A stretch of 57,429 nt of DNA from an uncultured Dehalococcoidia bacterium (GTDB lineage Bacteria; Chloroflexota; Dehalococcoidia; DSTF01; JALHUB01). Positions 10,851-43,460 of the stretch are shown one piece after another (within the stretch, counting starts at the first letter, position 1; every line of letters begins with the position of its first letter). The stretch lies in assembly GCA_964609465.1 (NCBI GenBank), contig CAZSSQ010000001.1, positions 1 to 57,429 of the forward strand, written 5' to 3'. The notes under the pieces were generated by a model that saw nothing but the letters and a program-made list of their open reading frames with translations, had not been told where the DNA came from and ran no database searches. A program made the position numbers and the translations under genes.

Positions 10851-11113
10851 GAAGTCACCTCTCTATGCACGGCTTGCGGGTCGGCTGGACCGAATCTAGC
10901 ACAGGCGTCGTTAGCCCTGACTACTGCCAATTGGCCCATTTCCTTGGTCATCTGGAGGATAGTACACCCGGCGGCCGGCGGTCAAAGGCGCTGCGCGGAC
11001 GGCTGCGGACCGGGCCGGCAGGGGGCTCCCGGTCGAGGGGATTTCCCTGATTGACGCGTCTCCCCGCAACCGGAATCATGGTACCTGGAGCTAGCCTCTG
11101 TCGGGCGTTTTCT

Positions 11114-12238
11114 ATGCGGGTTGGTATCTACCTTGTACCGCTGCTTGACCACGTTACAGGCCGCGAGAGGGGCATGCAGGGTCTCTTGGACGCTCTTGCC
11201 CGCCTCGACGGGGCCAACGACTACTATCTCTTCGTGAGGCCCGGAAACCGGCGGCTCTTCCAGCGTCCTGAGCCCAACTTTCACACCGTAGTGGTCCGGC
11301 TTCCCTCCCTGCCCTCGCGACGGCTGTGGCAGTTGGGTCACCTCTACCTGGCCCGCTGGGCTCACCGCCTGGACGTCATCGACCTGCCGGAGTCGCCCAT
11401 GCCCGGCTTCTTCTCCAAGAGGGCCGTGGCCATGGTCCACGATATCACGCCGGTGCTCTTCCCCTCTCTTCTTCCGCCCAAGGGACGTTTGTTCTACCGG
11501 AGGGCTCTCACGCTCGGCATCAAGCGCCTGGGCCGGATCACGGTGCCTTCGCAGTGCACCAAGAACGACCTGGTGACGCATCTCTCGGCCGATCCCGGCA
11601 AGGTGACGGTGGTCTCCCGGGGCGTGGACCCACGGTTCCAGACGGCCCGGCATCTCGAGCCGATAGCCGCGGTGAAGCGGAAGTATCGCCTGCCCGACCG
11701 GTTCATCCTCTACGTGGGGACGCTGGAGCCACGCAAGAACCTGGCCCGCCTCATCGGCGCCTATCGCCGGCTGAGGGAAGAGGGGGCGTGCCACGCGCTG
11801 GTTATCGCAGGCGCCAGGGGCTGGCTCTGCGACGACGTATTTGAGGCCGCCGGCCGCGACGGCTTGAGAGAGCATATCATCTTCACCGGGCACGTGGGCG
11901 AGGACGACCTGCTGGCCCTCTACCAGTCGGCCGACGTCTTTGCCTACCCTTCCCTGTACGAGGGGTTCGGCCTCCCCGTGCTGGAGGCCATGGCCTGCGG
12001 CGTGCCCGTGGTCTGCTCGGACCGGGGCTCCCTGCCCGAGGCGGCCGGCGACGCTGCCCTCCTGGTGGACCCCACCGACGAGTCAGCGATTGCGGCTGCC
12101 CTGGCCAGGGCCCTGCGCGACGATGACCTCCGTCGGGAGCTGGTGGCCAGAGGCCTGCGCCGGGCGCGGGAGTTCACCTGGGACAGGGTGGCGCGGAGCT
12201 TCCTATCGGTCTACCAAGAGGTGGCCGCCGGACGATGA
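11114..12238 (+). CDS. Glycosyltransferase family 4
   Basis: C-terminal GT-B signature YPSLYEGFGLPVLEAMACGVPVVCSDRGSLPEAAGDAALLVDP. The track ORF begins at 11051. I prefer the in-frame ATG at 11114 (MRVGIYLVP...), which matches a typical GT4 N-terminus. Confidence 0.8.
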   Translation: MRVGIYLVPLLDHVTGRERGMQGLLDALARLDGANDYYLFVRPGNRRLFQRPEPNFHTVVVRLPSLPSRRLWQLGHLYLARWAHRLDVIDLPESPMPGFFSKRAVAMVHDITPVLFPSLLPPKGRLFYRRALTLGIKRLGRITVPSQCTKNDLVTHLSADPGKVTVVSRGVDPRFQTARHLEPIAAVKRKYRLPDRFILYVGTLEPRKNLARLIGAYRRLREEGACHALVIAGARGWLCDDVFEAAGRDGLREHIIFTGHVGEDDLLALYQSADVFAYPSLYEGFGLPVLEAMACGVPVVCSDRGSLPEAAGDAALLVDPTDESAIAAALARALRDDDLRRELVARGLRRAREFTWDRVARSFLSVYQEVAAGR

Positions 12239-12286: not shown

Positions 12287-13504
12287 CTACGGCAGGTAGG
12301 AGAGGGGGTCCCGGCGCACGCCGTTGTCGATGACCTCGAAGTGGAGGTGGTTGCCGGTGCAGTGGCCGGTGCACCCCACGATGCCCAGCGGCTGTCCCTG
12401 CCGCACCCTCTGCCCCTCGGTCACGCTGATGGACTCCAGGTGGGCGTAGAGAGTGATGATGCCTTCCGTGCTATCGACGATGACGTATAGCCCGTAAGAG
12501 CAGCAGGGGTCGCCGCCGGCGAAGACGACCACGCCGTCTGTGGCCGCCACGATCGAGCCTTCCGACTGCCCGATGTCTATTCCCAGCGGGTGGCTGGGCC
12601 CAAAGTAGCTTGTGATGGGGCCCAGGGCCGGCCAGACCAGGCGCCGACGCTGGTCTTCCTGCAGAAGCGACGTGCGGTACTTCTGGAAGAACTGGTGGAT
12701 ACCATCTGCCAGGCCTTGAGCCAGGGCTTGGCCCTTGCTGTCGCCGGCGGCGGAGGCCGGGACCTCCAGAAGCACCGTCGTCATCCGCGCCCGACCGGCC
12801 AGCAGGACGCCGCAGTCGAACGCCTCGGGGTCCGCGATGTCGCCGTCCCCCTGGTTCACGTTGGGTAAGCCGGTCGCCGCGAGACTTCTCAGGAGCAGGT
12901 CGGCCAGTTGGCCGCCAAGAGAGCCTTTCACCTGGCAGAACCAGGCCTCGAGGCCTGTGTCGGCGTTCGCGCCGGCGGCAGGTCGAATGGCAACGTAGGC
13001 GTCGGGCCGGAGGGGGCCAGCGCCGTTGTCGGCAGCGTCTCCCTCCAGCAGAGTGACATCGTAGCCCTGAGCCTCCAGGCTTTGCTTTGTGAGAAGCGCT
13101 ACTTCCACCGTGTCCGCCGAGGCGGATGTGCCCACGTCCAGGACAGCGGCCAGGCGCCGCCTGGCGGTAAGGCTGGCTTGGGAACGTTCTGACGCACGCG
13201 TCTGTCCCGACACGGGGCGAGCGCGGGTGGCTGGCAGGGCTTCGCTGGGTGCCGGATAGCGGATGGCAGGCGTGGCCTGGGGGGCCGTCGGACCGGGCGA
13301 TGTCTGTGTGGTCGCCCGCACCGGCTGTAAGGGTTGCGCCTCGTCCGGGATATCGCGCGGTTGTGTCGGCGAGCCTGTCTCGCCATCAGGTGGACCGGCC
13401 TGCGCTCGGGCGGCCTGTAGAGACACGATGATGACGCCGACAGCCAGGACCGCCGTCAGCACGGCGATGGCGCGAACCGTTGCCGTCCACAGAGCCGCAA
13501 GCAT
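12287..13504 (-). CDS. Membrane-anchored M23 (LytM-type) metallopeptidase with a central degenerate amidase_3-like domain; last gene of the archaellum gene string
   Basis: The N-terminal TM helix is IAVLTAVLAVGVIIVSL. The C-terminal M23 motifs are SHPLGIDIG and GCTGHCTGNHLHFEV. The central region AVLDVGTSAS...PDAYVAIRPAA...GLEAWF...TTVLLEVPAS...LADGIHQFF aligns by eye to the N-acetylmuramoyl-L-alanine amidase (Amidase_3) fold, but the two His zinc ligands read T and R. The start lies 6 nt after the upstream gene's stop. Confidence 0.85.
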   Translation of the reverse strand: MLAALWTATVRAIAVLTAVLAVGVIIVSLQAARAQAGPPDGETGSPTQPRDIPDEAQPLQPVRATTQTSPGPTAPQATPAIRYPAPSEALPATRARPVSGQTRASERSQASLTARRRLAAVLDVGTSASADTVEVALLTKQSLEAQGYDVTLLEGDAADNGAGPLRPDAYVAIRPAAGANADTGLEAWFCQVKGSLGGQLADLLLRSLAATGLPNVNQGDGDIADPEAFDCGVLLAGRARMTTVLLEVPASAAGDSKGQALAQGLADGIHQFFQKYRTSLLQEDQRRRLVWPALGPITSYFGPSHPLGIDIGQSEGSIVAATDGVVVFAGGDPCCSYGLYVIVDSTEGIITLYAHLESISVTEGQRVRQGQPLGIVGCTGHCTGNHLHFEVIDNGVRRDPLSYLP

Positions 13505-13510
13505 AGCCGG

Positions 13511-14053
13511 CTAAGCAGCCCTCTCCTGCTTCTGAGGGTTCTCAACTCCCGCGGCTTGCCTCCCCAGGAGGTCGTTGCGGATGGAGCGGGCTACGGCCAG
13601 GAGATCCACTGCCGGCAGGTCTTCCAGGTCATCCTTCAGCACCGGCGCCGTGAACGTACGCTTGGCGCTAGCCCTGAACATGTGCATCGGGTCATCTGAA
13701 GAGCCCTCCTCCGTCTGGGGCTCTTCACCCACACTCTCTGGTGCCTGGCTCTCGGGCGCTGGCGACTCCTCCGTCTGGTCCGGGGACTTATCTTCGCCGG
13801 TGAGAAGCTGTCCAGCCTCGTCTTCGGCGGGCCTGGCCTCCCCCTGGGACGGCGGGTCTGCCATCTCTCCCTCCACTGCTGGCACGTTGACCTGGGGAGC
13901 ATCCGCCTCCGGCGTCCCTGCTAGCGTGGCCCCCTCTGCGTCTCCGGGGAGAGAGGGTATCATGAGAAGACCGTTCTCTTCGGCGCCAAACTCGTCCTGC
14001 TCTTCGTTCTGGTCCTCGTCGGGGGTCTTCAGCAGCCGTGTCAGGAATCTCAT
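13511..14053 (-). CDS. Hypothetical acidic, low-complexity (E/D/P/A-rich) protein with a short conserved-looking C-terminal segment
   Basis: 180 aa ORF, 16 nt downstream of the arlJ stop and 6 nt upstream of the M23 gene. The composition is plausibly disordered and I recognise no family. Coding status rests mainly on its tight operon fit and the absence of a competing ORF. Confidence 0.5.
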   Translation of the reverse strand: MRFLTRLLKTPDEDQNEEQDEFGAEENGLLMIPSLPGDAEGATLAGTPEADAPQVNVPAVEGEMADPPSQGEARPAEDEAGQLLTGEDKSPDQTEESPAPESQAPESVGEEPQTEEGSSDDPMHMFRASAKRTFTAPVLKDDLEDLPAVDLLAVARSIRNDLLGRQAAGVENPQKQERAA

Positions 14054-14069
14054 GGGGTATTACCTCCCT

Positions 14070-15629
14070 TCACTGTCCTGGTGATACCGGGGTGGCGGCT
14101 ATGTTCTGGAAGAGCACCGACACCATGGCAGGTATGACGATGATGGCGATGCCGGACATGAACATCATTATTGCTGCGAACAGGCAGAGCTTGTAGCGAT
14201 TTCCGCCTCCGGCCGCGTAGGGCGCGAAGCTGTTCGCTGCCGTCAACACTAGGATCATCATGCCGACGAAGAGGCTGATGAAGTGCATGTTGGGGGCAGA
14301 GTACAGGAGCATGTTGCTCACGCCCGCCTCGGACATGATGTCGCTGTTGAGGCTCTGGTCCTGGACCTTGGCCAGCTCGGCGCCGAATATGCGCATCACT
14401 TCCGTGATGAACAGCATGATGGATAGGAGAACGGCGTGGAGCGGAACCACCACCCATGCAAAGGTGGAGGACACCAGCTTGCGGGTGGACCGCTGCAGCG
14501 CCACCTTCTGTGCGAAGGTGGAAGCCAGGGAGCCCACTCGGCTGGCGTCGCCGCCCAGTCGCAGGCCGTCCCAGAAGACGCGCACGGAGCGGCTCACCAG
14601 CTCTGACCCTGTCTCACCGGCGAAGCGCAGCCAGCAGAGCTGCGGCGATATGTTGTTGCCCAGCCTCACGTAGAGACGGCGCACGTTGGGCTCCAGAGCG
14701 CCCAGGGAGCGCCGGTTGAGTCGGCTCAGGCCCTCGCCCACGGTGGTTCCCACGGCGCCCATCACGCCGCCCAGAGCGCGCAGGAAGGTGGCGATGTCTT
14801 GGTCGCGGGCGTCCACCTTCCAGTCATCGCGGAAGGCCACGTAGCCCAGCGGTGCCAGAACCAGCGCGCTCCCGATGAGGGCCGGACCCAACCCGAAGGT
14901 GAAGCCCAGCACGGCGCCGAAGACGGCCGCCACCGGCAGCAGGATCTGGCTCAGCCGCGCCATCTGGTATTGCTCCGGCGACTTTCTCGCCAGATGATGC
15001 GTTTTCACCTCGTGAGGGGCGACGCTGAAGATGACCCAGCTTCCGGCTATGGTCACTAGCAGCACGACGAAGGCCAGGCCGACGATGACGCCCGCCCCCA
15101 TGGAGTAGATCATCATCGAGACCATGGAGATGACTACGATGAGGGTGCAGGAGACCATGAGGGCTACGTAGGCGTCCGCCCACTTGCGCAGCGATTCCAT
15201 GTCCCGCTCGTACTTCTTGCCGTAGAGCTCCAGTTGGACCTCGGTCTCTCGGCCCAGGAACTCTTCTTCCGGCTCGCCGGCCGAAAGAGCGGTGGACAGG
15301 CGAAGGAGCAGGTTCTGCACATTCTCCGGCCCCGTCGTTTCCGCCACCATTTCGCAGGCGTGCGAATAGTCGTAGTTCAGGCGTTGCGCCACCCGGTGGA
15401 CGCGGCGAAAGAAGCGGGAGGTGCTGTAGTCCAGCCGGCCCGTTCCTTCGAAGAGCCTATCACGCGATATGCCTGCCGTCGCCGCGGCCGACATGTGGGT
15501 GAGCTGGCTGATGAGGTCGAAGTCCAGGGGCTCCCGGCTGAAGAGGGAGGACGCCGCTGGACTCTCCTCATGCGGCTCGCTAGATGAGGCCTTCCCGTCC
15601 CGCCTGAGAAAAGACTTGATAGAGATCAT
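14070..15629 (-). CDS. arlJ: Archaellum platform membrane protein ArlJ (FlaJ; T2SS-F/TadC-like)
   Basis: 519 aa polytopic protein with two cytoplasmic T2SSF-like repeats (...NYDYSHACEMVAETTG...LLRLSTALSAGEPEEEFL...). It follows arlI directly, and its ATG at 15629 overlaps the arlI 3' end by 50 nt. Confidence 0.85.
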   Translation of the reverse strand: MISIKSFLRRDGKASSSEPHEESPAASSLFSREPLDFDLISQLTHMSAAATAGISRDRLFEGTGRLDYSTSRFFRRVHRVAQRLNYDYSHACEMVAETTGPENVQNLLLRLSTALSAGEPEEEFLGRETEVQLELYGKKYERDMESLRKWADAYVALMVSCTLIVVISMVSMMIYSMGAGVIVGLAFVVLLVTIAGSWVIFSVAPHEVKTHHLARKSPEQYQMARLSQILLPVAAVFGAVLGFTFGLGPALIGSALVLAPLGYVAFRDDWKVDARDQDIATFLRALGGVMGAVGTTVGEGLSRLNRRSLGALEPNVRRLYVRLGNNISPQLCWLRFAGETGSELVSRSVRVFWDGLRLGGDASRVGSLASTFAQKVALQRSTRKLVSSTFAWVVVPLHAVLLSIMLFITEVMRIFGAELAKVQDQSLNSDIMSEAGVSNMLLYSAPNMHFISLFVGMMILVLTAANSFAPYAAGGGNRYKLCLFAAIMMFMSGIAIIVIPAMVSVLFQNIAATPVSPGQ

Positions 15630-17319
15630 AGAAGTTTGTTCTGCCGTCCTGGCTCAGCTTCTGGATCAGGCTGGCTCGGCGCTCCAGTTCATCGTAGACG
15701 GCCCGCTTGTTGCGGGTGTCCAGGCCGCGCCTAGGCGCGATAACCTGCTCCAGGAGGTAGCTGTTGCCGCTGCCCGTAAACTCGAAGATGTCCCTGGAGG
15801 AGTCCCAGCGGAAGATTTCGATGAAGGAGAACGAATCGGTATCAGAGTCGTAGTCGATGATCTCACTGATAGAGACGATGCGCCGACCCATCTTGCCGTC
15901 CGGCAGCCGTACAGAGCTACAGAGGACCACGACGTTCAGGTTGTCCATGTAGACCTTGGGCACGTTGATAGGATGGCCGGTGAGACGCTGGATTAGCTTC
16001 TCCACCGTGGAGGCGTGAAAGGTGGCCATGACGGCGTGCCCGGTCTGCATAGCCTGGAAGGCGATTGCTCCCTCCTCGCCACGGATCTCGCCCACCAGGA
16101 TGGCGTTGGGCCGCTGGCGCAGGGCGGCCTTCAGCAAGCTGAACATCGTCACGGACGAGTCGTCGTCGGCCATGCTGCCCCGGACCACCTCTCGGATCCA
16201 GTTTGGGTGCGGCACCTGAAGCTCCGGCGTGTCCTCTATGCTCACGATCTTGGCCCAGGGCTGGATGAAGCCCGAGATGGCGTTGAGCAGGGTCGTCTTA
16301 CCGGAGGCCGTCTCCCCCGAGACGAAGACGTTCATGCCCTCATTCACAGTCAGCCAGAGGTATGCCGCCATGTGGCAGTCCAGGCCGCCGCCCCCCATGA
16401 TGTCCGTGATGCTCAGAGGTGTGGAGGTGAACTTGCGGATGGTGAAGTTGCTACCACGCTTGGACACGTCACCCCCGTAGACGATGTTGATACGCGAGCC
16501 GTCGGGCAGGGTGGCATCGACGATGGGGTTCCTGTAGGTGACGGGCCTGTTGATCTTCTCCGAGAGGCGGATGACGAACTCGTCCAGGGCCTCCGTGCGC
16601 TCGAAGGAGACAGAGCTCTTGAGGCCCTTGAAGATCTTGTGCTCGATGAAGAGGAGTCCCAGGCCGCTGCAACTGATGTCCTCGATGTAGGGGTCATGGA
16701 TCAGAGGCTCCAGGACGCCGAGGCCGATCTTGTCGCGGACCAGCAGGTACTCCAGGCCGGCAAACTGCCTGCCGGTGACGGGAATCTTGCCGCCTGACTT
16801 TGCCGGGCGCGAGAAGAGACCGCCGCCAGACTTCTTCCCATTGGAGCGTTTGCCTCCCCCGTTGCTCGTCACCGCGCAGTTCTCCTGGACGGCCTGCCGC
16901 AGGACTTCGGCCTTGGCTTCCGACGTTTCGGCGCGCTCCAGCGCATCCACATAGTCCATGAGCCGGCGCTCTAGCTGGTCCAGGATGGGCTCCAAGTCCC
17001 CTACGGACGAAGGCTCGATGGCGATGTAGTAGTCGCGCGCATCCGCGGCGTCGGGAAAGATGTGCACGAAGAGGTCATCGGACACTGGATAGATCAGGTT
17101 GGGGTGTTTCAGGTCGCCCAGCTTTCGGTTGAGTTCAGGGTAATACTCTGGCATCCCCACCTCAGCGATGGGCACTTGATGCAGATACTCCAAGAGGTGC
17201 GGCGCTTGGGCCGTCCTTTCCTGAAGGGCTGGGGGCAGCAGCCCGTGAAGGCTGCACTGCTCAGCCCCTGCCCCATGCTGATGGCTTGTGCCCTCGCTGC
17301 TGAAGGGGAGATTCTTCAT
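15580..17319 (-). CDS. arlI: Archaellum assembly/motor ATPase ArlI (FlaI; VirB11/T2SS-E superfamily)
   Basis: Walker A is VSGETASGKTTLLNA and Walker B / catalytic Glu is PNAILVGEIRGEE. The His box region reads TGHAVMATFHA. The start overlaps the arlH stop in an ATGA junction. Confidence 0.9.
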   Translation of the reverse strand: MKNLPFSSEGTSHQHGAGAEQCSLHGLLPPALQERTAQAPHLLEYLHQVPIAEVGMPEYYPELNRKLGDLKHPNLIYPVSDDLFVHIFPDAADARDYYIAIEPSSVGDLEPILDQLERRLMDYVDALERAETSEAKAEVLRQAVQENCAVTSNGGGKRSNGKKSGGGLFSRPAKSGGKIPVTGRQFAGLEYLLVRDKIGLGVLEPLIHDPYIEDISCSGLGLLFIEHKIFKGLKSSVSFERTEALDEFVIRLSEKINRPVTYRNPIVDATLPDGSRINIVYGGDVSKRGSNFTIRKFTSTPLSITDIMGGGGLDCHMAAYLWLTVNEGMNVFVSGETASGKTTLLNAISGFIQPWAKIVSIEDTPELQVPHPNWIREVVRGSMADDDSSVTMFSLLKAALRQRPNAILVGEIRGEEGAIAFQAMQTGHAVMATFHASTVEKLIQRLTGHPINVPKVYMDNLNVVVLCSSVRLPDGKMGRRIVSISEIIDYDSDTDSFSFIEIFRWDSSRDIFEFTGSGNSYLLEQVIAPRRGLDTRNKRAVYDELERRASLIQKLSQDGRTNFYDLYQVFSQAGREGLI

Positions 17320-18032
17320 GCCTTGGCTCTAGTCATTGGTATGATGCGCATGCCCAAGCCGGGCTCGACGTCAAAGGCGATGACGTTGCCGGTATTCTGG
17401 TCGGCCCCCCGGACCTTAGATACCTCCATCTCCTTCAGGAGCTGAGTGCCTATCTCCCCCACCCTCAACCGCAAGTAGGCGTCGCAGATGGAGCGGATGC
17501 GGATGAACATAGCCTCGCTGAACGCGTAAGAGTGCATGGTCAGGAGCAAGGTCTTGTTCTGGTCGCACAAGTCTTTGACCGCCATGAAGAAGGAGAGAGT
17601 CTCCTGCTCAGGGATGCTGGTCATGAAGACGCTGAGCGAATCGAAGGCCAGGAGCTCACGGTCCTCCGTCATCCTTGTCATGTGATCGAGGGCGAACCGA
17701 AGCATCGCGCGAGCCTCGTCCTCCGTGGGGGCGGAGCGCATAGGATAGATGTTTATACGACCCAAGAGGAAGAAGTCGGTAATGTCCTGGTTGAGGCTCT
17801 TCATCTGCCGGAGGAGGCTGTGGATGGTGTTCTCTGTGGTGTAGTAAGCCACCCGTCTGCCATCCCGAAGGGCGCCCCACACCAACTGCTGAGTCAGCAC
17901 GCTCTTGCCTGCCTCGGACTGGCCCTCGATGAGGGTCAGCGAGCCCTCCGGGATGCCGCCGGCCATCTTCTTGTCCAGCTCGGCGTTACCGGTGGAGATA
18001 TAGTGGCGCTTGTGTTCCGGCTCCTCGGTCAT
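17316..18032 (-). CDS. arlH: Archaellum KaiC/RecA-like ATP-binding protein ArlH (FlaH)
   Basis: 238 aa. ISTGNAELDKKMAGGIPEGSLTLIEGQSEAGKSVLTQQL is a RecA/KaiC-type Walker A context. The position immediately upstream of arlI is canonical. Confidence 0.85.
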   Translation of the reverse strand: MTEEPEHKRHYISTGNAELDKKMAGGIPEGSLTLIEGQSEAGKSVLTQQLVWGALRDGRRVAYYTTENTIHSLLRQMKSLNQDITDFFLLGRINIYPMRSAPTEDEARAMLRFALDHMTRMTEDRELLAFDSLSVFMTSIPEQETLSFFMAVKDLCDQNKTLLLTMHSYAFSEAMFIRIRSICDAYLRLRVGEIGTQLLKEMEVSKVRGADQNTGNVIAFDVEPGLGMRIIPMTRAKA

Positions 18033-18070
18033 GGTTCACCTGCCTTGTTAATGTATCGGCCACGTCTCAC

Positions 18071-18571
18071 TTACCCTGTGAACGTGGTGGAGACGGTGAC
18101 GCCCAGGTCCGTAGCGACGAGGAGGCGGTTGGTGGTACCGCCGCCCGCCGGCGGATCAAGCCAGATGCGCATCCTGAGGGTCTCCCCCGGGTTGAGGATG
18201 CCCGGCTCAAAGGCGTCGTTGATGATGTTCTGGACGGTCCAGGTGTTGGGCGCCAGGGCGCCGTTCGTGTAAGGGATCCAGGCCAGCGCGGGGCTGCCGC
18301 CGCCGGTGGTGTACTGCACGAGCACGTCCATGCGGTCATAGCCGGCCAAGGTGGTGCTGCCGTCATTCTGAAGATCTGCGTCCACATAGGGGCTGCTTGA
18401 GGTCACGTTGGTGATGGTGAGCCGGGTGTGCATCTGTTCGGCGGAGCGGGTTTCCATCTCCTTCCAGAGCTGTCCCATCTCATCAACAGACCGGTAACCT
18501 GACCGGGCCAGCACCATGGCGGACACCATCAGAATGGCGGCGATGACGGCGGCTGGTATGCTGGTCTCCAT
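18071..18571 (-). CDS. arlG: Archaellum stator/periplasmic component ArlG (FlaG)-like
   Basis: 166 aa with an N-terminal hydrophobic helix (IPAAVIAAILMVSAMVLA) followed by a beta-rich, archaellin-like soluble domain. The assignment relies mainly on the canonical position between arlF and arlH. Confidence 0.6.
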   Translation of the reverse strand: METSIPAAVIAAILMVSAMVLARSGYRSVDEMGQLWKEMETRSAEQMHTRLTITNVTSSSPYVDADLQNDGSTTLAGYDRMDVLVQYTTGGGSPALAWIPYTNGALAPNTWTVQNIINDAFEPGILNPGETLRMRIWLDPPAGGGTTNRLLVATDLGVTVSTTFTG

Positions 18572-18583
18572 GGCCTGGCGCTC

Positions 18584-19030
18584 CTAGACGCTGAAGAACT
18601 TGGCATCGCTGATGCCGTTGGGGACCACCACTTTGACGAAGTAGGTGGTGCCCGTTGTGAGGGGGTAGTCCAGGTAGATGATGATGTGGAGGGTGGCCGT
18701 AGGCCCCCACTCGGTGGCGCCACCTTCCAGCGCGTAGTCCCAGCAGGGCGCCGTGCAGCTAGGGCCTCCATAGGGGATGCGGTTGAAGTTGTCTTCGGGG
18801 CCGAAGAAGACATCGGTGGAGTCGATGGGGCCAACGCGGGAGGCGCCCACGTTCTTGACCCAGGCGTCGGCCTGGGTAGCGGTATCCACGCCAGTGGCAT
18901 GGATGATCTCCACCTGGCTCGAGATGCGGTCGTTGACCACGTCAGAGGTCATGACCATGGAGCTGTTGGTGCGGCTAAGCGCGGGCATGACCGAGTTGAC
19001 CACAGCGACGATGGCCACAACCGCGGCCAC
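18584..19030 (-). CDS. arlF: Archaellum stator/periplasmic component ArlF (FlaF)-like
   Basis: 148 aa with an N-terminal hydrophobic helix and a beta-rich domain (...VEIIHATGVDT...AWVKNVGASRV...). It holds the canonical position between arlC/D/E and arlG. The hydrophobic helix continues in frame upstream of the GTG start (see findings). Confidence 0.6.
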   Translation of the reverse strand: MAAVVAIVAVVNSVMPALSRTNSSMVMTSDVVNDRISSQVEIIHATGVDTATQADAWVKNVGASRVGPIDSTDVFFGPEDNFNRIPYGGPSCTAPCWDYALEGGATEWGPTATLHIIIYLDYPLTTGTTYFVKVVVPNGISDAKFFSV

Positions 19031-19145
19031 GGTTAGCAGAATGGTGGCGATGGCCTTCTCGATGGCTGCACCCCCTTACACTCCTCCGGGTGGCTGCCAG
19101 TCTGAAGGCCCGGCGGGCCCGCCCCGAGGGGCGGCTGTCTGGCCG

Positions 19146-19841
19146 CTACCGGTTCCTTCCTGTGCTGCGGCGCCGTCGTAGAAACGACATCTCGTCGCTC
19201 TCTGCTCCTTGGAAGATGGCCTCCAACTGGCGTAGGGCGACCAGTGTGTCGTTGACAGAGACGGTGGCGCTATCCTTGCGGCTACTGGCCAGCTTGACGA
19301 CCTTCAGCAGAGCCTCCTCCGCCTCCGGCGGAATGAGACCCGCGAAGGGGGCCAGGTCGAGGATCATCTGCAGGTGGGTGGTGCCCAGCCGGGAGGTGGT
19401 CTCGTCGACCCAGGCTATCAGGCCAGCGATGGTGGACACGCTCCAGGCCTGAGGAACAGCCGCCTCAACCATCGCCGGCAGGGGGGTGACCTCCGGGCCG
19501 CCCCCGGCCATCGTCGGCAGAGGTGCGCTCTCCGGGCCGCCCCTGGTCTCCGGGGGGGCGGTCGGCTCCACCCGCAGCACATGCGGGAGCGGGTCCTCCA
19601 CCTCGCTGGCCGTCGCCGGCGCCCTGGTAACGCTCGGAGGAGCCTCCTCCGACGCTGGAGCGGGCTCGCTGGCCGCGCCCGAGCGCTCTATGGGCTGGAA
19701 AACTGGCAGGCCGCCCTGTGACGCGAAGGGGTTGTCCCGGGCGAGGACAGTCGTCCTGATCTCCTCCAGGATCGACTTGATCTCGCCCTTGAGGAGCTTG
19801 ACCTCCTCCTCCAGGGCAGCTATCTGGGCGGTGATCTCCAT
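19146..19841 (-). CDS. ArlC/D/E (FlaC/D/E)-like archaellum accessory protein
   Basis: 231 aa. It has an N-terminal coiled coil (MEITAQIAALEEEVKLLKGEIKSILEEI), a Pro/Ala-rich linker and a C-terminal segment TIAGLIAWVDETTSRLGTTHLQMILDLAPFAGLIPPEAEEALLKVV. The C-terminal segment resembles the FlaD/E domain pattern. The gene sits between archaellin and arlF, as in euryarchaeal operons. Confidence 0.5.
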   Translation of the reverse strand: MEITAQIAALEEEVKLLKGEIKSILEEIRTTVLARDNPFASQGGLPVFQPIERSGAASEPAPASEEAPPSVTRAPATASEVEDPLPHVLRVEPTAPPETRGGPESAPLPTMAGGGPEVTPLPAMVEAAVPQAWSVSTIAGLIAWVDETTSRLGTTHLQMILDLAPFAGLIPPEAEEALLKVVKLASSRKDSATVSVNDTLVALRQLEAIFQGAESDEMSFLRRRRSTGRNR

Positions 19842-19864
19842 GGCATACCTGCCTTCTCACGGGG

Positions 19865-19910
19865 GGCGGCGCCCTGACCGTTCCGCCGTACGTTCAAGCA
19901 GGGCGCCGCC
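19865..19910 (-). terminator. GC-rich hairpin between the arlB (copy 1) stop and the arlC/D/E-like start
   Basis: GGCGGCGCCCTG (19865-19876) pairs with CAGGGCGCCGCC (19899-19910), a perfect 12-bp stem with a 22-nt loop. No U-tract follows. It is plausibly a partial terminator or RNA-stability element. Confidence 0.5.
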
Positions 19911-19926
19911 TCCACAGGATCCTTCC

Positions 19927-20517
19927 CTAATGTAGCTGCATTACCTCGGCCAGTTCCGCTGGCAGTTGCCGGGTGATGTCGAGGACGGCGCCGACAGGCG
20001 TCTGGACCTCCAGGGTGAAGCGGTCATTGGCAGACAACGTGGGCGCGGGACTGATGGCGCTCGCGCTAATGACAATGACCTTTACCTCGCCCGGCTCCAG
20101 GAGCGTGTCGCCGTCGCCCACGATGTCGTCGGCCGTGTACGTCACGTCGTTGTCCGTGACGGCGTCGTCACGGTAGGCGATGACCGTCCGGTTCTGGCTG
20201 GCGGCGGGGTCCAGGGGAATGGACTCTCCACCGGCCGTGGTGGCTACGGTGAAGAAAATGTCGTCCACGGCTAGGGGCGAGCCCGTGGCCGAGACGACGA
20301 TGCCCCCGCGTACCTCCATGGTGCCGCGGGCCTTCTGTAGGCCGGCGAAGACGGTCTCCTTGCCCCGCTCGGCGCTAAAGATACCGGTGGTCAACACGAC
20401 GAAGGCGAAGATGGTGGCGACCACGACGAAGGCGATGAGGATGATGGCGGTCTCAAGACCGGTGATCCCTCGCTCTTCGCGGTGGATCCGGCGCAGCGCG
20501 CTGGTAAGTCGCTTCAT
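19927..20517 (-). CDS. arlB: Archaellin (archaeal flagellin), copy 1
   Basis: The class III (type IV pilin-like) signal peptide and hydrophobic N-terminal helix are MKRLTSALRRIHREERG/ITGLETAIILIAFVVVATIFAFVVLTTGIF. A beta-rich C-terminal domain follows. AAGGAGGG lies upstream of the ATG. Confidence 0.9.
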   Translation of the reverse strand: MKRLTSALRRIHREERGITGLETAIILIAFVVVATIFAFVVLTTGIFSAERGKETVFAGLQKARGTMEVRGGIVVSATGSPLAVDDIFFTVATTAGGESIPLDPAASQNRTVIAYRDDAVTDNDVTYTADDIVGDGDTLLEPGEVKVIVISASAISPAPTLSANDRFTLEVQTPVGAVLDITRQLPAELAEVMQLH

Positions 20518-20692
20518 CTGCTAGCCCTCCTTTCTACGTAAGAATTTGGTTTGGCCTGAGCTGATTTCCCGCTAGCTAGGCGGAACGGATTTTATCCCGG
20601 CAACCAGCCCTCCTTTCGATGCCTTCCGTCCGATTCCGCCCTGGCGGCCGCCCGACGGGGCCTCTATCTCTCGTGATAGTTCCGTCCGGCAG

Positions 20693-20790
20693 GTCAGCCG
20701 TAGGCGGTACGGCCTGAGACGTATGCCTGAGGAATGTTCGACCACAGGAGGGAGGGCACTATTAGGGGGAACCCTACTTTTGGGGTCCTG
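20693..20790 (-). promoter_or_regulatory. Conserved 5' leader/promoter block of arlB copy 1 (paralogous to 21709-21806)
   Basis: The block aligns by eye with the one upstream of copy 2. It contains the hairpin GCCGTA-ggcgg-TACGGC and, in minus sense, an AAAGTAGG...CCCTAAT motif. Confidence 0.4.
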
Positions 20791-20950
20791 GGCTGGCGAG
20801 GTGAGGCGGCCGACCGGCTATAGGGTAGGAGTAGCTGGCGACGAGGGAGGAATCTAGTGGGTCACGGCGTGCCGGTGGCTCTGGCCGGTGGCTTCGGCTG
20901 CCTTAGGTGCCACAAGGCCAGCACGCAATGCTGAGGGGAAGGCCTCGTCA

Positions 20951-21001
20951 CGCGCAAGCACGCAGCCAAGGGGCTGCGTGCCATGCGGGCTGCGCGTTTT
21001 T
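20951..21001 (+). terminator. Plus-strand-oriented nested hairpin followed by a T5 run in the arlB2-arlB1 spacer
   Basis: The inner stem is CACGCAGCC-aagg-GGCTGCGTG (20959-20980). The outer arms are CGCGCA (20951-56) and TGCGCG (20991-96), followed by TTTTT (20997-21001). No plus-strand gene lies upstream of it. Confidence 0.3.
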
Positions 21002-21009
21002 GTGCCTAG

Positions 21010-21055
21010 GGCGGCGCCCCGCTTGAACGTACGGCACAAGGGGCAGGGCGCCGCC
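21010..21055 (-). terminator. GC-rich hairpin just downstream of arlB copy 2
   Basis: GGCGGCGCCC (21010-21019) pairs with GGGCGCCGCC (21046-21055). It is paralogous to the 19865-19910 hairpin, but its interior is in the opposite orientation. Confidence 0.5.
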
Positions 21056-21070
21056 TCCACAGGGCCCCCT

Positions 21071-21664
21071 CTAGTGGAGCTGCATCACGGCAGCCAGTTC
21101 CGTCGGTAGCTGCCGGGTGATGTCGAGCACGGCGCCGACCGGCGTCTGGACCTCCAGGGTGAAGCGGGTATTGGCGTCCATGGTGGGCGGGCCATCGATG
21201 CCCGTGGCCCGGTCGATGCTAACGAGTATCAGCTCGCCCGGCTCCAGCAGCGTGTCGCTGTCCCCCACGATGTTAGTGACCGTGTAGGTCACGTCGTTGT
21301 CCACCGTGGTGGCGTCGCGGTAAGCGATGACGGTTCGGTTGTTGGTGGCTGCCGGGTCCAGGGGAATGGACTCTCCACTGGCCGTGGTGGCCGCGGTGAA
21401 GAAGATGTCGTCCACGGCCATAGGTGAGCCCGTCGCCGTGGCGACGATGCCGCCGCGGATCTCCATTGTGCCGCGGGCCTTCGCCAGGCCGGCGAAGACG
21501 GTCTCCTTGCCCCGCTCGGAGCTGAAGATACCTGCCGTCAGCACGACGAAGGCGAAGACGGTAGCGACCACGACGAAGGCGATGAGGATGATGGCGGTCT
21601 CAAGACCGGTGATCCCTCGCTCTTCCCTGTGGGCCCGGCGCAGCGCGCTGGTAAACCGCTTCAT
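21071..21664 (-). CDS. arlB: Archaellin (archaeal flagellin), copy 2
   Basis: MKRFTSALRRAHREERG/ITGLETAIILIAFVVVATVFAFVVLTAGIF. By eye it is roughly four-fifths identical to copy 1, with divergence concentrated in the outer C-terminal domain. Confidence 0.9.
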   Translation of the reverse strand: MKRFTSALRRAHREERGITGLETAIILIAFVVVATVFAFVVLTAGIFSSERGKETVFAGLAKARGTMEIRGGIVATATGSPMAVDDIFFTAATTASGESIPLDPAATNNRTVIAYRDATTVDNDVTYTVTNIVGDSDTLLEPGELILVSIDRATGIDGPPTMDANTRFTLEVQTPVGAVLDITRQLPTELAAVMQLH

Positions 21665-21876: not shown

Positions 21877-22611
21877 CTAGTCCAGTTGCTCCAGGACCCG
21901 GCTGTAGACGATCCGGGCCAGTTCTTCCACCGGCTGGAAGGGCTCGGTGTCGCGGGGATTCTCTACCACCACCAGGGCCAGGACGGGGCCTGTGGCGAAG
22001 AGGACAAAGTCCGACTGGACCCCTTCACCTGTCGGCGGTGCCAGGCTCCGGCCCCGCAGGGATCCGGGGATGGGCTCGTCGGTGGCGGTGAAGAAGACTT
22101 CGGGGAGGGCGCCACCCAGCCGCTGCCGGGCCAGGCGCTCCAGCTCCGCCACCAGCGGCGTCACCGTCTGCAGAGTGCGGTCGTCGTCTCCGGCCTGGAG
22201 CGCCAGCGGCTCGCCGGGCCGGAAGACCACGAAGGTAGCGACCGTGGAGGAGTCTTCGGGGTCACGATAGGCGGAGAAGGCCCCGGCAACCGTCTCCTCC
22301 TCCAGCATGAGGCGGATGAGGGGGCTGTTGGTCATGTAGGGGTAGGCGGCGGCCTCCACCGGCACCCATCCTGAAGGCAGGTCGCCTCCGGCCAGGAGCG
22401 TCTCGCGGGCCACGAACTCGTCGCCCCCACCTCTCGCTCTCACGAGGACCGTTAGCGCCAGGCTCACCAGGAGAGCCAGCTCTATGGCAAGGAGAGCCAG
22501 CAGCAGGCGCCGGCGTCCCCCCGGAAGTCCCGGCAGGCGGCGGAAGCGGAGCGCAGGCATCAGCTTTCGGGAGAGCACTGCAACCTTCCCCTCAACCAGT
22601 AGAACGCGCAC
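21877..22611 (-). CDS. Hypothetical membrane-anchored protein upstream of the archaellin genes
   Basis: 244 aa with one TM helix (LLLALLAIELALLVSLALTVLV) and a soluble domain with no family I recognise. Alternative in-frame starts exist, for example MPALRF. Confidence 0.45.
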   Translation of the reverse strand: MRVLLVEGKVAVLSRKLMPALRFRRLPGLPGGRRRLLLALLAIELALLVSLALTVLVRARGGGDEFVARETLLAGGDLPSGWVPVEAAAYPYMTNSPLIRLMLEEETVAGAFSAYRDPEDSSTVATFVVFRPGEPLALQAGDDDRTLQTVTPLVAELERLARQRLGGALPEVFFTATDEPIPGSLRGRSLAPPTGEGVQSDFVLFATGPVLALVVVENPRDTEPFQPVEELARIVYSRVLEQLD

Positions 22612-41283: not shown

Positions 41284-43143
41284 TTACGCTTTCTCGGTGA
41301 CCTTGTACTCCAGCCGCTTTCCCAGGGCGAGGCGGATCTGCGCGTCCAGGGCCGGCAGGGCCCCGAAGAGGAACGTGATGGCAGCCATGAAGAACCACTG
41401 GGCGTACTGGATCGGGAAGAGCCACGCTGGGAAGGTGGGCGGACGGCGGGGCCGCATGATGACGCCATCCATGACTACCATCGCGATCAGGGGCACGGAG
41501 CAAGTAAAGAGAATCTTGGTGGAGGCGAACACGAACCAGGCCGGCATGGTTTTGACCCCGAAGAAGTAGAAGACCAGCCACGGCGCCAATCGACCGGTGG
41601 TGATGAGGAACCACTGACTGGACCAGAGGACGTGGTTCTCGAAGAGGCTCCAGGTGCGGCGGAGGCGGCGCAGGAAGGGGATCTCAGGATGAGCGAAGAA
41701 GTGCCTTATGGCGTATGGGATGTCTGAGGCGCCCCAGGCGTGGCGGCGCGCCTGCTGGTAGTGAGCGTAGAACGTCTTCAGGTAGCTTTCGCTGCGCACG
41801 CCGTCGTTGCCCACCGGCAGGAAGATGGGCTCTACGTCCACCTCGCCGCCGAGGTTGAAGAAGCACTTGAGGAACATGTGCCAGTCCTCAGGCACCACAT
41901 CCACGTCCCAGTAGCCGACCTCGCGGGCCATTCGGAAGCTGAGACTGTAGGTGGATTGGGGGAAGAGCACCCGGTGCTTGCGCGCCAGCCGGTTGAGGTG
42001 GTTCAATCCGCCCAGGCCGTTGGGGATGCGCAGGGGGGCGGGGACATCCCATATGTTGTTGTACAGGAGGACCGGCCCCTGCCAGAAGCGGCGGTAGCGC
42101 TGCGGGTGGGTGGCGAACTTGTAGGCCAGGCAACTGAAGTAGTGCGGATGGAAGAGGGTATCGGCGTCGCAACTGGTGATGGTCAGGCGGTCGATATCGT
42201 GGCCCATCTCCTCCACGAGGCGGCGCTCGATGTGGCGAGCGGCCCAGGACTCGTTGGAGGACTTGCCGCGCACCTCGCCCGGGATGTTGCCCGGGTGGAA
42301 GGTGGCGAACATGCCGGCAAAGCTGTCGCCGAACTCCTTGTGGAGCCGAAGCGCCTTCCTCCGGCAGCCCGGCTCCGCTTCCTCCATCGCCAGGACAACA
42401 AAGAGCTGTTCCCGGGCCACGTCTGACTCCGCCAGCTTGGAGAGGGTGGCGGCCAGTTTGGCGACGCTCTCTTTGTAAGTGGGGATGACCACTACGTGAC
42501 GGATGTCTTCCCAGCGAAGGTAGGTCTTGCCCCGGGCCCGCGCATCCTCATAACGGGCCCGCCAGTCTGTCCTCGCTTCGCGGCGGAGGAGCCGGTAGCC
42601 CTTGATGCAGTGAAAGGCTGTGTTATAGGAGCGCCACACCCAGTAGCAGTCGAATCCCAGTAGCAACACGGTGAGCGGCAAGGGCAGCCACAGCGCTCCC
42701 CAGCCCAGCGAGCTGATAAGGAGAAGGGCAGCGACCAGGGGAAGGGCCTGCAGGGCCCGCTGTAGCCAGCGGTCCAGGCGCGAGGTCGGCACGTAGGTCG
42801 ACAGCGACTCTGGCAGGGGATGGGGGAGGGTGGCTGGCGGCGCGCCTGGGCTGTACGGCGCCGGTGGATGTAGGATCGCCTCTTCCGCCGTGAGTGCCGG
42901 CACCCTGGTAGGGACGATGAACCCGGGGGCAGATGATCCATTCCGACGGGTGACAGGTCTGGGCGCCTCCAGGACCTCGACGCCCGCTCGGGAGCCATTG
43001 CCCGAGTGGGGAGCCCGCCCGGAAGGCTGGGGTTCCCACGGTGCCAGATAGGTCGCAGTAGTTGGGAGCGGTTTCAATGAGGCGTCAGGCTTGCGGGCCA
43101 AGAACGAGCCCGCGCCTCGCGCCCCGGGGCGGCCCACACGCAA
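41284..43143 (-). CDS. Membrane-bound glycosyltransferase family 2-like protein
   Basis: Between N- and C-terminal TM helices lies a GT-A-like core: VVVIPTYKESVAKLAATLSKL...VLAMEEAE...ITSCDADT. The true start within the Pro/Arg-rich N-terminus is uncertain. Confidence 0.6.
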   Translation of the reverse strand: MRVGRPGARGAGSFLARKPDASLKPLPTTATYLAPWEPQPSGRAPHSGNGSRAGVEVLEAPRPVTRRNGSSAPGFIVPTRVPALTAEEAILHPPAPYSPGAPPATLPHPLPESLSTYVPTSRLDRWLQRALQALPLVAALLLISSLGWGALWLPLPLTVLLLGFDCYWVWRSYNTAFHCIKGYRLLRREARTDWRARYEDARARGKTYLRWEDIRHVVVIPTYKESVAKLAATLSKLAESDVAREQLFVVLAMEEAEPGCRRKALRLHKEFGDSFAGMFATFHPGNIPGEVRGKSSNESWAARHIERRLVEEMGHDIDRLTITSCDADTLFHPHYFSCLAYKFATHPQRYRRFWQGPVLLYNNIWDVPAPLRIPNGLGGLNHLNRLARKHRVLFPQSTYSLSFRMAREVGYWDVDVVPEDWHMFLKCFFNLGGEVDVEPIFLPVGNDGVRSESYLKTFYAHYQQARRHAWGASDIPYAIRHFFAHPEIPFLRRLRRTWSLFENHVLWSSQWFLITTGRLAPWLVFYFFGVKTMPAWFVFASTKILFTCSVPLIAMVVMDGVIMRPRRPPTFPAWLFPIQYAQWFFMAAITFLFGALPALDAQIRLALGKRLEYKVTEKA

Positions 43144-43460
43144 AAAGGTCGCTCCTTAGTCGGACTCGACCTTTCCTTAGCCTGCGGGGTTAGCTGACGG
43201 GTTAGGGCGAAAGGCTACCCTTCCCGGTTGCCCGGGATTAACCCCTTCAGTGCTGGGTCCCCCGCCTCCCGCGCCTCCTTGCGGGAGCTCGGCAGTGGGG
43301 CTCAACGATGTGCCTGGATCATGCTAACGCACTACGGCGCGCTAATCAAGGGCATGATTGAGGACCTGTCAGCGAAGTCGGCCGGTGGGAATGCCCGCCG
43401 CTGCCGGTCCGTCCCGGCGGCTCGCCTGGCCGCCTCAAGCCGCAACACCTCACGCCCCAG

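Follow-up and report, generated by a model that had tools for sequence, protein, structure and literature searches.

How does a filament motor of archaeal type come to be encoded in a bacterium with a peptidoglycan wall, and how might it be fitted into that wall? The question is raised by a DNA stretch of 57,429 nucleotides (hereafter the window) from an uncultured Dehalococcoidia bacterium (assembly GCA_964609465.1, contig CAZSSQ010000001.1), which carries archaellum (arl) genes among bacterial genes for metabolism and the cell envelope. A first-pass annotation, made by reading the sequence, had described positions 12287-21664 as a complete euryarchaeal-type archaellum locus. That description holds for 14070-21664, whereas 12287-14053 is not archaeal and contains the genes for an acidic protein and for an M23 peptidase. 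Our analysis makes it very probable that the window holds a Chloroflexota arl2-type archaellum operon of euryarchaeal origin, extended here by the genes for the acidic protein and the M23 wall hydrolase.

Archaella have been described in this phylum before. Clusters were found in 243 of 3,780 Chloroflexota genomes; they have the arlG-arlF (arl2) order, contain arlCDE rather than arlX and leave the signal peptidase to be encoded elsewhere. Their origin was traced to arl2-type euryarchaea, and for Litorilinea aerophila both motility and a 2.7 Å cryo-electron microscopy structure of the filament were reported (Sivabalasarma et al., Nat Microbiol 2025, PMC12488501). Anchoring of the L. aerophila archaellum via PilN/PilO-LysM neighbors has also been discussed, PilO-LysM being found near arl genes in three genomes (Joest et al., Front Microbiol 2026, PMC13319060). 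The caveat in the first-pass annotation that Chloroflexota loci had already been reported was correct and decisive: the concept and the gene arrangement are known, and the window adds another intact example, from a soil or groundwater-type lineage. The annotation had also sought novelty in the bacterial add-ons, where it could indeed lie, but had not recognized the M23 gene and the gene preceding it as a conserved module. These add-ons at the operon end appear to be unreported. Neither M23 nor a hydrolase is mentioned in PMC12488501 or PMC13319060, amidase is also unmentioned in PMC12488501, and a full-text literature search combining archaellum and peptidoglycan hydrolase gave nothing relevant.

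Gene content and order of the operon

The eight archaellum genes lie on the minus strand from 21664 to 14070, tightly packed and intact, in the order arlB, arlB, a gene at the arlCDE position, arlG, arlF, arlH, arlI and arlJ (Table 1). Their presence was borne out by the open reading frames (ORFs) and by family scans.

Table 1. Features of the archaellum operon and its extensions in the window, in order of transcription from the upstream gene.
Feature	Positions	Strand	Evidence
hyp244, membrane-anchored protein	21877-22611	-	homologues at the same position in the closest relatives
arlB1, archaellin with class III signal peptide (MKRFTSALRRAHREERG/ITGLETAIILIAFVVVA)	21071-21664	-	PF01917 73 bits, TIGR02537
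Spacer arlB1/arlB2, 553 nt, non-coding	20518-21070		sequence read; no Rfam match
arlB2, second archaellin	19927-20517	-	PF01917 82 bits, 9i5h
ArlCDE-position protein, 231 aa	19146-19841	-	positional archaeal homologues
arlG, stator filament protein	18584-19063 (mechanical ORF 18584-19030)	-	solved FlaG structures 5tug/6pbk
arlF, stator cap protein	18071-18571	-	solved FlaF structure 4p94, NCBIfam ArlF, Pfam FlaF_Ig-like
arlH, KaiC-like ATP-binding regulator, Walker A GQSEAGKS	17316-18032	-	PRK06067, Pfam KaiC
arlI, motor/assembly ATPase, GETASGKTT and ILVGEIRGEE	15580-17319	-	NF058587
arlJ, polytopic platform protein	14070-15629	-	NF004703
Acidic 180-aa protein	13511-14053	-	C-terminal-motif HMM, alignment
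Predicted membrane-anchored M23 peptidoglycan hydrolase, 405 aa	12287-13504	-	PF01551 90.6 bits

Both archaellins score well above the 29.5-bit cut-off of Pfam Arch_flagellin (PF01917), and TIGR02537 matches their N-terminal class III signal and helix with about 28 bits (cut-off 20). Between the two proteins, sequence identity is 80%. Among solved structures, 9i5h ranks first (E 7e-38); we take it to be the bacterial archaellin of L. aerophila, and the alignment starts at the predicted mature N-terminus, I18, which follows ...EERG, and reaches the C-terminus. The earlier annotation of both as archaellins is thereby confirmed. A GD.LLE.GE stretch is kept in both and, by our own mapping, appears to be the metal-ligand stretch of that structure, the ligands named for the L. 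aerophila archaellin being D121, D127, E131 and E134 (PMC12488501). The spacer between the two genes is far longer than the other gaps of the operon, has equivalents of 556 and 733 nt in two related loci (L081 and L082, respectively), and contains no ORF with coding-like properties.

ArlH and ArlI were confirmed as well, the homology of ArlJ is clear, and the Walker motifs quoted earlier are present in the translations. ArlI reaches 657 bits with the archaellum ATPase model NF058587 (equivalog cut-off 550). ArlH scores 281 bits with the FlaH model PRK06067 (cut-off 194) and 78 bits with Pfam KaiC, and falls slightly under the 215-bit cut-off of the ArlH equivalog model with 210.6 bits. ArlJ matches NF004703 over residues 31-508 of 519 with 438 bits (E 3e-131), and the Pfam T2SSF match is just E 0.007. 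The arlH and arlI genes share an ATGA overlap and arlI overlaps arlJ by 50 nt, both as described before; the 50-nt overlap is called likewise in seven related loci (L081-L087).

The canonical arlF-arlG order assigned in the first-pass annotation did not hold. The first of the two proteins matches the solved Sulfolobus acidocaldarius FlaG (5tug/6pbk, E 4e-10; 3.8e-10 for 5tug) and PF01917 with 31.7 bits, with a weak NCBIfam ArlG match, and the second matches solved FlaF (4p94) with E 7e-5 vs. 0.16 for FlaG, in addition to NCBIfam ArlF (E 8e-7) and Pfam FlaF_Ig-like (E 9e-5). The NCBIfam ArlF and Pfam FlaF_Ig-like scores are under the curated cut-offs, yet all these matches are mutually consistent. 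Read in this way, arlG followed by arlF is the arl2 layout, which was reported for Chloroflexota, Archaeoglobus and others (PMC12488501), and it is shared by those bacterial and archaeal loci in which arlG and arlF could both be found.

The protein at the arlCDE position consists of an N-terminal coiled coil (LE.E...LK..IK..L.DIR....NPF), a variable Pro/Ala-rich linker and, at the C-terminus, a helical domain in which one Trp is invariant. It has no Pfam or NCBIfam match of its own, even at E<=10, and its profile found nothing meaningful among solved structures. In loci of Archaeoglobi and Methanomicrobiales, homologues that cover its full length are encoded at this position, and 12 of 30 aligned family members weakly match Pfam Arch_fla_DE (best E 7e-5). 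The ArlCDE-like label given earlier is therefore supported by position and transitive similarity and not by a family match of the protein itself; it is reasonable, not demonstrated.

Phylogenetic placement and relatives

Related bacterial and archaeal loci, labeled with L-numbers, were compared with the window. Crude gene calls pick antisense ORFs in high-G+C loci; L001-L005 and L012 were judged by tblastn/phmmer and by the gene calls of the collection. In a neighbor-joining tree of the single protein ArlI (83 sequences, 386 columns, rooted on CpaF, without bootstraps), the bacterial sequences form a monophyletic clade, and the window sequence groups within it in one subclade with L001, L002, L003, L004 and L012. 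The bacterial clade is sister to Archaeoglobi and Methanomicrobiales, and S. acidocaldarius FlaI, Archaeoglobus fulgidus GspE2 and CpaF lie successively outside. This placement agrees with the published ArlI+ArlJ tree (PMC12488501).

Among species-representative genomes, the nearest ArlI (87% identity) comes from an 'uncultured Chloroflexia' metagenome-assembled genome (MAG), followed by Dehalococcoidia-labeled MAGs with 60-71%, so that the nearest named relatives are MAGs labeled Dehalococcoidia or 'Chloroflexia'. The nearest archaea, Archaeoglobi, have about 53% identity, and Methanoculleus about 50%. Relatives in metagenomes reach 96%. Identical genes in identical order occur in relatives with 96, 87, 82 and 70% ArlI identity, all independent assemblies, and synteny is kept over ArlI divergence down to about 63%.

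In many Dehalococcoidales-type loci (L010, L028, L038, L039, L042, L043, L045, L052, L059, L071 and L078), a second ArlI-like ORF lies between arlI and arlJ. It could be a duplicated or split ATPase. The window does not have it.

The acidic protein

The gene after arlJ starts 16 nt beyond the arlJ stop, behind a GGGAGG ribosome-binding site. Its product is largely low-complexity and has no signal peptide or transmembrane (TM) helix. Both ends are conserved, the N-terminus as MRFL.R.LKTPDED...GLLM and the C-terminus as DDP[LM]..FR...L..DLED[VL].A.[DE]LL[AE].ARSIR, and the ratio of non-synonymous to synonymous substitution rates (dN/dS) is 0.41-0.48. Pfam searched at E<=10 gave no match for this protein, nor for the ArlCDE-like, hyp244 or hyp235 proteins.

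A hidden Markov model (HMM) of the C-terminal about 80 residues, iterated on 6,871 ORFs of 87 loci, found 40 matches, exactly one per bacterial locus and none in archaeal loci. Nothing else was found up to E=50 save one weak match, the arlJ-adjacent ORF of L069. The matched ORF immediately follows arlJ, except in L005 and L012, where it stands immediately before M23. Where the sequence of a bacterial locus extends at least 0.7 kb past arlJ, 39 of 42 loci were matched; in the three misses (L067, L069 and L074), the C-terminus of the ORF adjoining arlJ is visibly similar. Among the ORFs of the window, the acidic gene is the sole match.

Archaeal arl2 loci also encode an acidic protein after arlJ, with an N-terminal TM helix and a conserved C-terminal helix. 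When the archaeal and bacterial C-termini were compared with hhalign, P was 0.0012 and the probability 19%, against 0.085 for a reversed control. With such a marginal result, we rejected homology as a firm claim; common ancestry of the two proteins is possible.

Because the acidic gene stands beside the arl genes in nearly all sampled Chloroflexota archaellum loci, its product is probably an accessory or adaptor subunit associated with the motor. Chloroflexota have no CheF, and another adaptor may exist (PMC12488501); that the acidic protein is a candidate for this adaptor is our speculation. What follows the motif protein differs in other clades: PilD and PilN-like genes in Anaerolineae and Caldilineae, which matches the published observation, and an Ig-domain protein and DUF5658 in Dehalococcoidales.

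The predicted M23 wall hydrolase

The M23 gene starts 6 nt after the acidic gene. In an AlphaFold2 model with a mean predicted local distance difference test score (pLDDT) of 76, the protein has, from the N-terminus, a TM helix (residues 2-35), a linker that is disordered and rich in Pro (36-113), a middle domain of alpha/beta type (about 116-286) and the M23 domain (about 300-405). Across 48 sequences, residues H305, D310, H355, H386 and H388 either do not vary or reach at least 90% conservation, which gives the domain the zinc-binding and catalytic motifs of a predicted LytM-type metallo-endopeptidase. The top Foldseek matches of the model were DipM, ShyA and LytM, the M23 domain dominating the whole-model search.

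A profile of the middle domain found as best solved structures the Amidase_3 enzymes 4rn7 (9e-4), then CwlV and Rv3717. The relation is also seen from the other side, since a bona fide Amidase_3 of L087 matches the middle domain in orthologues with E 4e-10. Two Amidase_3 zinc-ligand histidines are replaced in the window protein, by V/T and R. The middle domain is thus amidase-like in fold and probably non-catalytic, and we read it as a putative wall-binding or regulatory domain. In L003, L085 and L086, a lytic-transglycosylase-like segment with a KVES motif (E-S) and GQFLP..W precedes the M23 domain.

In the window and 48 relatives, the active-site strands of M23 have cysteines on either side that do not vary or hardly do so, an invariant pair in GGDPCCSYG and those of a conserved GCTGHC, and two more invariant cysteines, C190 and C231, are in the amidase-like domain. 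They may form disulfides or an additional metal site in this predicted extracytoplasmic enzyme.

Linkage of the two genes to the archaellum operon

The order arlJ, acidic protein, M23 is found in the window and in L001, L002, L003 and L081-L085. In L086 the third gene encodes the lytic-transglycosylase-like segment plus M23, and in L087, which has no M23 gene, another wall hydrolase, Amidase_3, fills the same slot. The acidic-M23 pair stands upstream of arlB in L005 and L012, and also in L088-L090, where DUF922 precedes it and the two genes overlap by 4 nt. In total, the link between hydrolase and arl genes was counted in 15 loci with differing outer flanks, which are wholly exchanged between linked loci. 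The other 31 bacterial and 37 archaeal loci have no M23 domain. Reciprocal look-ups starting from M23 homologues with 41-49% identity led in three of three cases to a gene beside an arl cluster, these being L088-L090.

The DUF922 genes are at 8346-8996 in L088, with an adjoining Peptidase_A24 (PilD-type) gene, at 8675-9202 in L089 and at 8563-8826 in L090. In L089 (ENA ERZ25039457 contig_38242), the arl genes beside M23 appear broken into many short ORFs at 12.9-19.9 kb, reflecting either a decaying archaellum locus or long-read frameshift errors.

The linkage bears on whether the two extra genes belong to the archaellum at all. The M23 protein could be an ordinary division or housekeeping wall hydrolase that lies beside arlJ by chance, with the acidic ORF as fast-evolving filler. 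The nearest NCBIfam models of the hydrolase are indeed of the DipM, ShyA, NlpD and EnvC type, most archaellated Chloroflexota loci have no M23 gene, and the acidic protein is low-complexity and without a family match. A chance neighbor would hardly be expected to survive full replacement of the flanks and a shift of both genes to the opposite operon end, to be found beside arl genes in every look-up from the M23 side, or to have its slot taken by Amidase_3; nor would filler give one HMM match per bacterial locus and, save a weak arlJ-adjacent one, nothing else. We consider a chance association unlikely.

Coding integrity of the operon

For all 11 genes (Table 1), dN/dS against two relatives is 0.13-0.50, which shows purifying selection. 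The ribosome-binding site of arlB1 is AAGGAGAAGGGAGG, and arlB1, arlB2 and the acidic gene each have a strong Shine-Dalgarno site (e.g., AAGGAGG) in front.

The start of arlG is unusual. No in-frame ATG, GTG or TTG is present at the conserved N-terminus, and the mechanical ORF starts at GTG 19030. The peptide IEKAIATILLT, encoded upstream of this GTG, is conserved in relatives, and at the position of the window's Ile, L007 and L016 carry Met. An ATC at 19063-19061 is preceded by GGGGGTG. Judging from this conservation, arlG in this sublineage probably starts at the conserved non-canonical ATC.

The lack of a canonical start codon in arlG, the lack of signal peptidase and chemotaxis genes nearby and the fragmented look of the related locus L089 would fit an inactive relic that makes no filament. 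Decay is difficult to reconcile with ten intact ORFs, the low dN/dS values, the synteny kept to about 63% ArlI identity and the ribosome-binding sites before arlB1, arlB2 and the acidic gene, and the homologous system of L. aerophila is functional (PMC12488501). A relic is accordingly improbable, and most likely the window carries a functional arl2-type archaellum operon, as far as can be read from its genes.

Distinction from pili

A bacterial Tad or type IV pilus, or an archaeal-type adhesion pilus that does not rotate, would share several protein superfamilies with the operon: ArlI and ArlJ belong with TadA/CpaF and TadB/C, and Pfam alone gives T2SSE and a faint T2SSF match. More specific models separate these systems. 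ArlI passes the archaellum equivalog cut-off, whereas it scores 157 bits with TadA TIGR03819 (cut-off 373), 187 bits with the bindosome ATPase model, 59 bits with PilB (676) and 56 bits with GspE (630). Against solved proteins, it scores 446 bits with S. acidocaldarius FlaI (4ii7), 273 bits with the pilus-type GspE2 of A. fulgidus and 147 bits with Caulobacter CpaF. The archaellum-specific ArlH, ArlF and ArlG are present in addition to the ArlCDE-position protein, and the filament proteins match archaellin structures including 9i5h. A pilus is very improbable on these grounds.

Host and genomic context

The flanks contain ordinary bacterial metabolism and envelope genes, including a YkuD L,D-transpeptidase, Opp/Dpp-type permeases, glycosyltransferases and an FtsX/ABC pair at 39.4-41.3 kb. 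This agrees with the earlier description of the flanks, including the M23 peptidase, except that a Dpp-type binding protein was not found beside the permeases. An EnvC-style partnership between the M23 protein and this FtsX/ABC pair was weighed too and rejected, given the distance of 25 kb and the lack of conservation of the pair alongside the locus. A cyclic di-AMP (c-di-AMP) riboswitch of the ydaO type lies at 43166-43304 on the minus strand (79 bits, gathering score 38). It is directly upstream of a gene for a 619-aa family-2 glycosyltransferase (41284-43143), an unusual-looking target for such a riboswitch. YkuD, M23 and the c-di-AMP riboswitch mark the host as bacterial; it is a Chloroflexota bacterium with peptidoglycan. 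As noted at first reading for flagellar, type IV pilus, transposase and integrase genes, none is present, and the whole 57 kb also contains no chemotaxis (che) or prepilin-peptidase gene.

The base composition, earlier judged by eye to match the surroundings, does so in numbers as well. G+C at third codon positions is 0.83-0.87 in the arl genes and 0.86 in the flanks, and codon use correlates with that of the flanks at 0.993. Overall G+C falls to 0.61-0.62 across 14-19 kb; because the dip is confined to codon positions 1 and 2, it reflects amino-acid composition. The composition is fully ameliorated and, with no mobile-element genes present, is consistent with the old, domesticated inter-domain transfer proposed before.

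Both junctions between arl genes and flanks, formed upstream by a thiolase-aminotransferase-TPP (thiamine pyrophosphate) enzyme segment and downstream by LarN-FrhB-POR, recur in the independent assemblies L081, L082, L083 and L001, which come from different samples and sources. The idea that the contig is archaeal, or a chimera joining archaeal and bacterial DNA, would suit the G+C dip and the core genes' closest non-Chloroflexota relatives, Archaeoglobi and Methanomicrobiales, but can practically be dismissed, because the recurring junctions exclude a chimera, third-position G+C and codon use match the flanks with the dip in positions 1 and 2 alone, and bacterial features are found on both sides (YkuD, c-di-AMP riboswitch) and, with M23, in the operon itself.

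Neighboring genes

Upstream of arlB1, hyp244 has homologues at the same position in L081, L001, L082, L002 and L084 and weakly in L086, i.e., in the nearest relatives only. A set of 5.8 billion proteins contains 65 relatives, none with a Pfam domain. Its AlphaFold2 model (pLDDT 74) shows a TM helix and an alpha/beta domain, with weak PsbP/TiME/DcrB-like Foldseek matches (E 4e-4, template-modeling score 0.35-0.43). We considered hyp244 as a PilN/PilO analogue and rejected this, the model having no PilN/O match and being weakly PsbP/TiME/DcrB-like. Its dN/dS is 0.26-0.50, and its true start is probably some codons downstream of GTG 22611.

On the other side, between the M23 gene and a conserved LarN gene, the window has one family-4 glycosyltransferase (GT4) gene (11051-12238, plus strand). 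The same interval contains two GT4 genes and a UDP-glucose dehydrogenase gene in L081 (15252-18656), the relative with 96% identity, and none of these in L082 or L001. This variable glycosyltransferase insertion beside the operon could relate to archaellin glycosylation.

Discussion

The gene identities, their order, the placement of ArlI, the purifying selection and the conserved linkage are shown here, whereas expression, filament assembly, rotation and the parts played by the acidic protein and the hydrolase are inferred. Some observations weigh against the archaellum reading or parts of it. The ArlJ score is below the 570-bit equivalog cut-off, and the ArlCDE assignment is indirect. Scans for promoters and terminators were not above chance in the number of sites, with 0 sigma-70-like sites vs. 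1.6 expected and 6 terminator-like sites vs. 5.5 expected. The earlier term 'complete' is apt for the structural and motor genes; the window contains no che genes and no Peptidase_A24, i.e., no class III signal peptidase ArlK/PibD/PilD, so control and archaellin processing cannot be confirmed from the window. Its absence there does not exclude a signal peptidase in the genome, because published loci also encode it elsewhere. For the hydrolase, the first M23 motif reads HPLGID, with one residue more between H and D than in the usual HxxxD, and the M23 family also includes regulators that are non-catalytic and enzymes of cell division. Moreover, a walled cell can do without this protein for its archaellum, because other archaellated Chloroflexota have no M23 gene.

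The following scheme would account for the locus. An ancestor of several Chloroflexota lineages would have acquired an arl2-type operon from a euryarchaeon. By analogy with archaea and L. aerophila, once the genes are expressed, a prepilin-type peptidase encoded elsewhere would cut both archaellins after Gly17, and an ArlI hexamer on the ArlJ platform, with ArlH, would assemble the filament and then drive its rotation with ATP. ArlG and ArlF would form the stator, which must be fixed to the envelope, and the ArlCDE-position protein would be a cytoplasmic ring or switch interface. In the sublineage of the window, the operon would have been extended by two co-transcribed genes, the first for a cytoplasmic acidic protein and the second for an M23 endopeptidase anchored in the membrane with its catalytic domain facing the wall. 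Gene linkage and domain content suggest that this enzyme may locally open or remodel peptidoglycan cross-links so that the sacculus lets motor, stator and filament through and provides their seat, a task akin to that of FlgJ or the dedicated lytic transglycosylases of flagella and secretion systems.

A broader idea can be put forward tentatively, at slightly less than even odds: Chloroflexota lineages may have solved the crossing and gripping of peptidoglycan with different recruited genes, in this sublineage with a wall-hydrolase module (M23, M23 plus a lytic-transglycosylase-like segment, or Amidase_3). The acidic protein would be the product of an unrecognized archaellum gene and may descend from the archaeal acidic TM protein, and a candidate for linking the motor to signaling or the envelope.

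The add-ons bear on a question left open by the published work: by what means a motor with an evolutionary past in S-layer envelopes is fitted into a wall of peptidoglycan. They provide testable candidates, namely a wall hydrolase tied to the operon in one sublineage and an acidic gene beside arl in nearly all sampled bacterial loci. Both genes can also serve as extra markers for the detection of bacterial archaella.

Comparison with known systems

The closest known system is the Chloroflexota archaellum itself (PMC12488501). The window has the same genes in the order arlB-arlCDE-arlG-arlF-arlH-arlI-arlJ, the arlCDE gene being assigned by position and transitive similarity, no signal peptidase gene in the locus, an archaellin that aligns with 9i5h over its full mature length, and an ArlI in the same bacterial clade near arl2-type euryarchaea. 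It differs in lineage, its ArlI being about 53% identical to that of Caldilineaceae loci, in having two archaellin genes, and in its neighbors: acidic and M23 genes at the 3' end, a PsbP/DcrB-like membrane protein upstream, and no PilN, PilO-LysM, CheY or PilD near the arl genes. The arl2 clusters of Archaeoglobi and Methanomicrobiales share the core order with the window, with ArlI identities of 49-54%; in them, too, arlJ is followed by an acidic protein, and their ArlCDE-position protein has the same layout of coiled coil, linker and helical domain. In contrast to the window, che genes and an archaeal-only 269-aa family adjoin these clusters, peptidoglycan enzymes are absent, and the arlJ-downstream protein has an N-terminal TM helix and marginal profile similarity.

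Dedicated wall-lytic enzymes are known from other trans-envelope machines, such as FlgJ for flagella, SltF/PleA, VirB1 for type IV secretion and EtgA for type III secretion. The window resembles these systems in that a wall hydrolase is encoded in or beside the operon of a machine that crosses the sacculus, and in L003, L085 and L086 the orthologue even has a lytic-transglycosylase-like segment before M23. On the other hand, the machine is a type IV filament motor of archaeal origin, and the enzyme is a predicted TM-anchored M23 endopeptidase with a degenerate amidase-like domain that is not homologous to the rod-capping domain of FlgJ. The PilN/PilO-LysM proteins of L. aerophila (PMC13319060) offer another parallel, as bacterial envelope proteins recruited near an archaellum and proposed to act in wall crossing and anchoring; PilN-like and PilD genes are present in sampled Anaerolineae and Caldilineae loci and not in the window. 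Those are binding or alignment proteins that occur in few genomes, whereas the recruit in the window is a predicted catalytic hydrolase.

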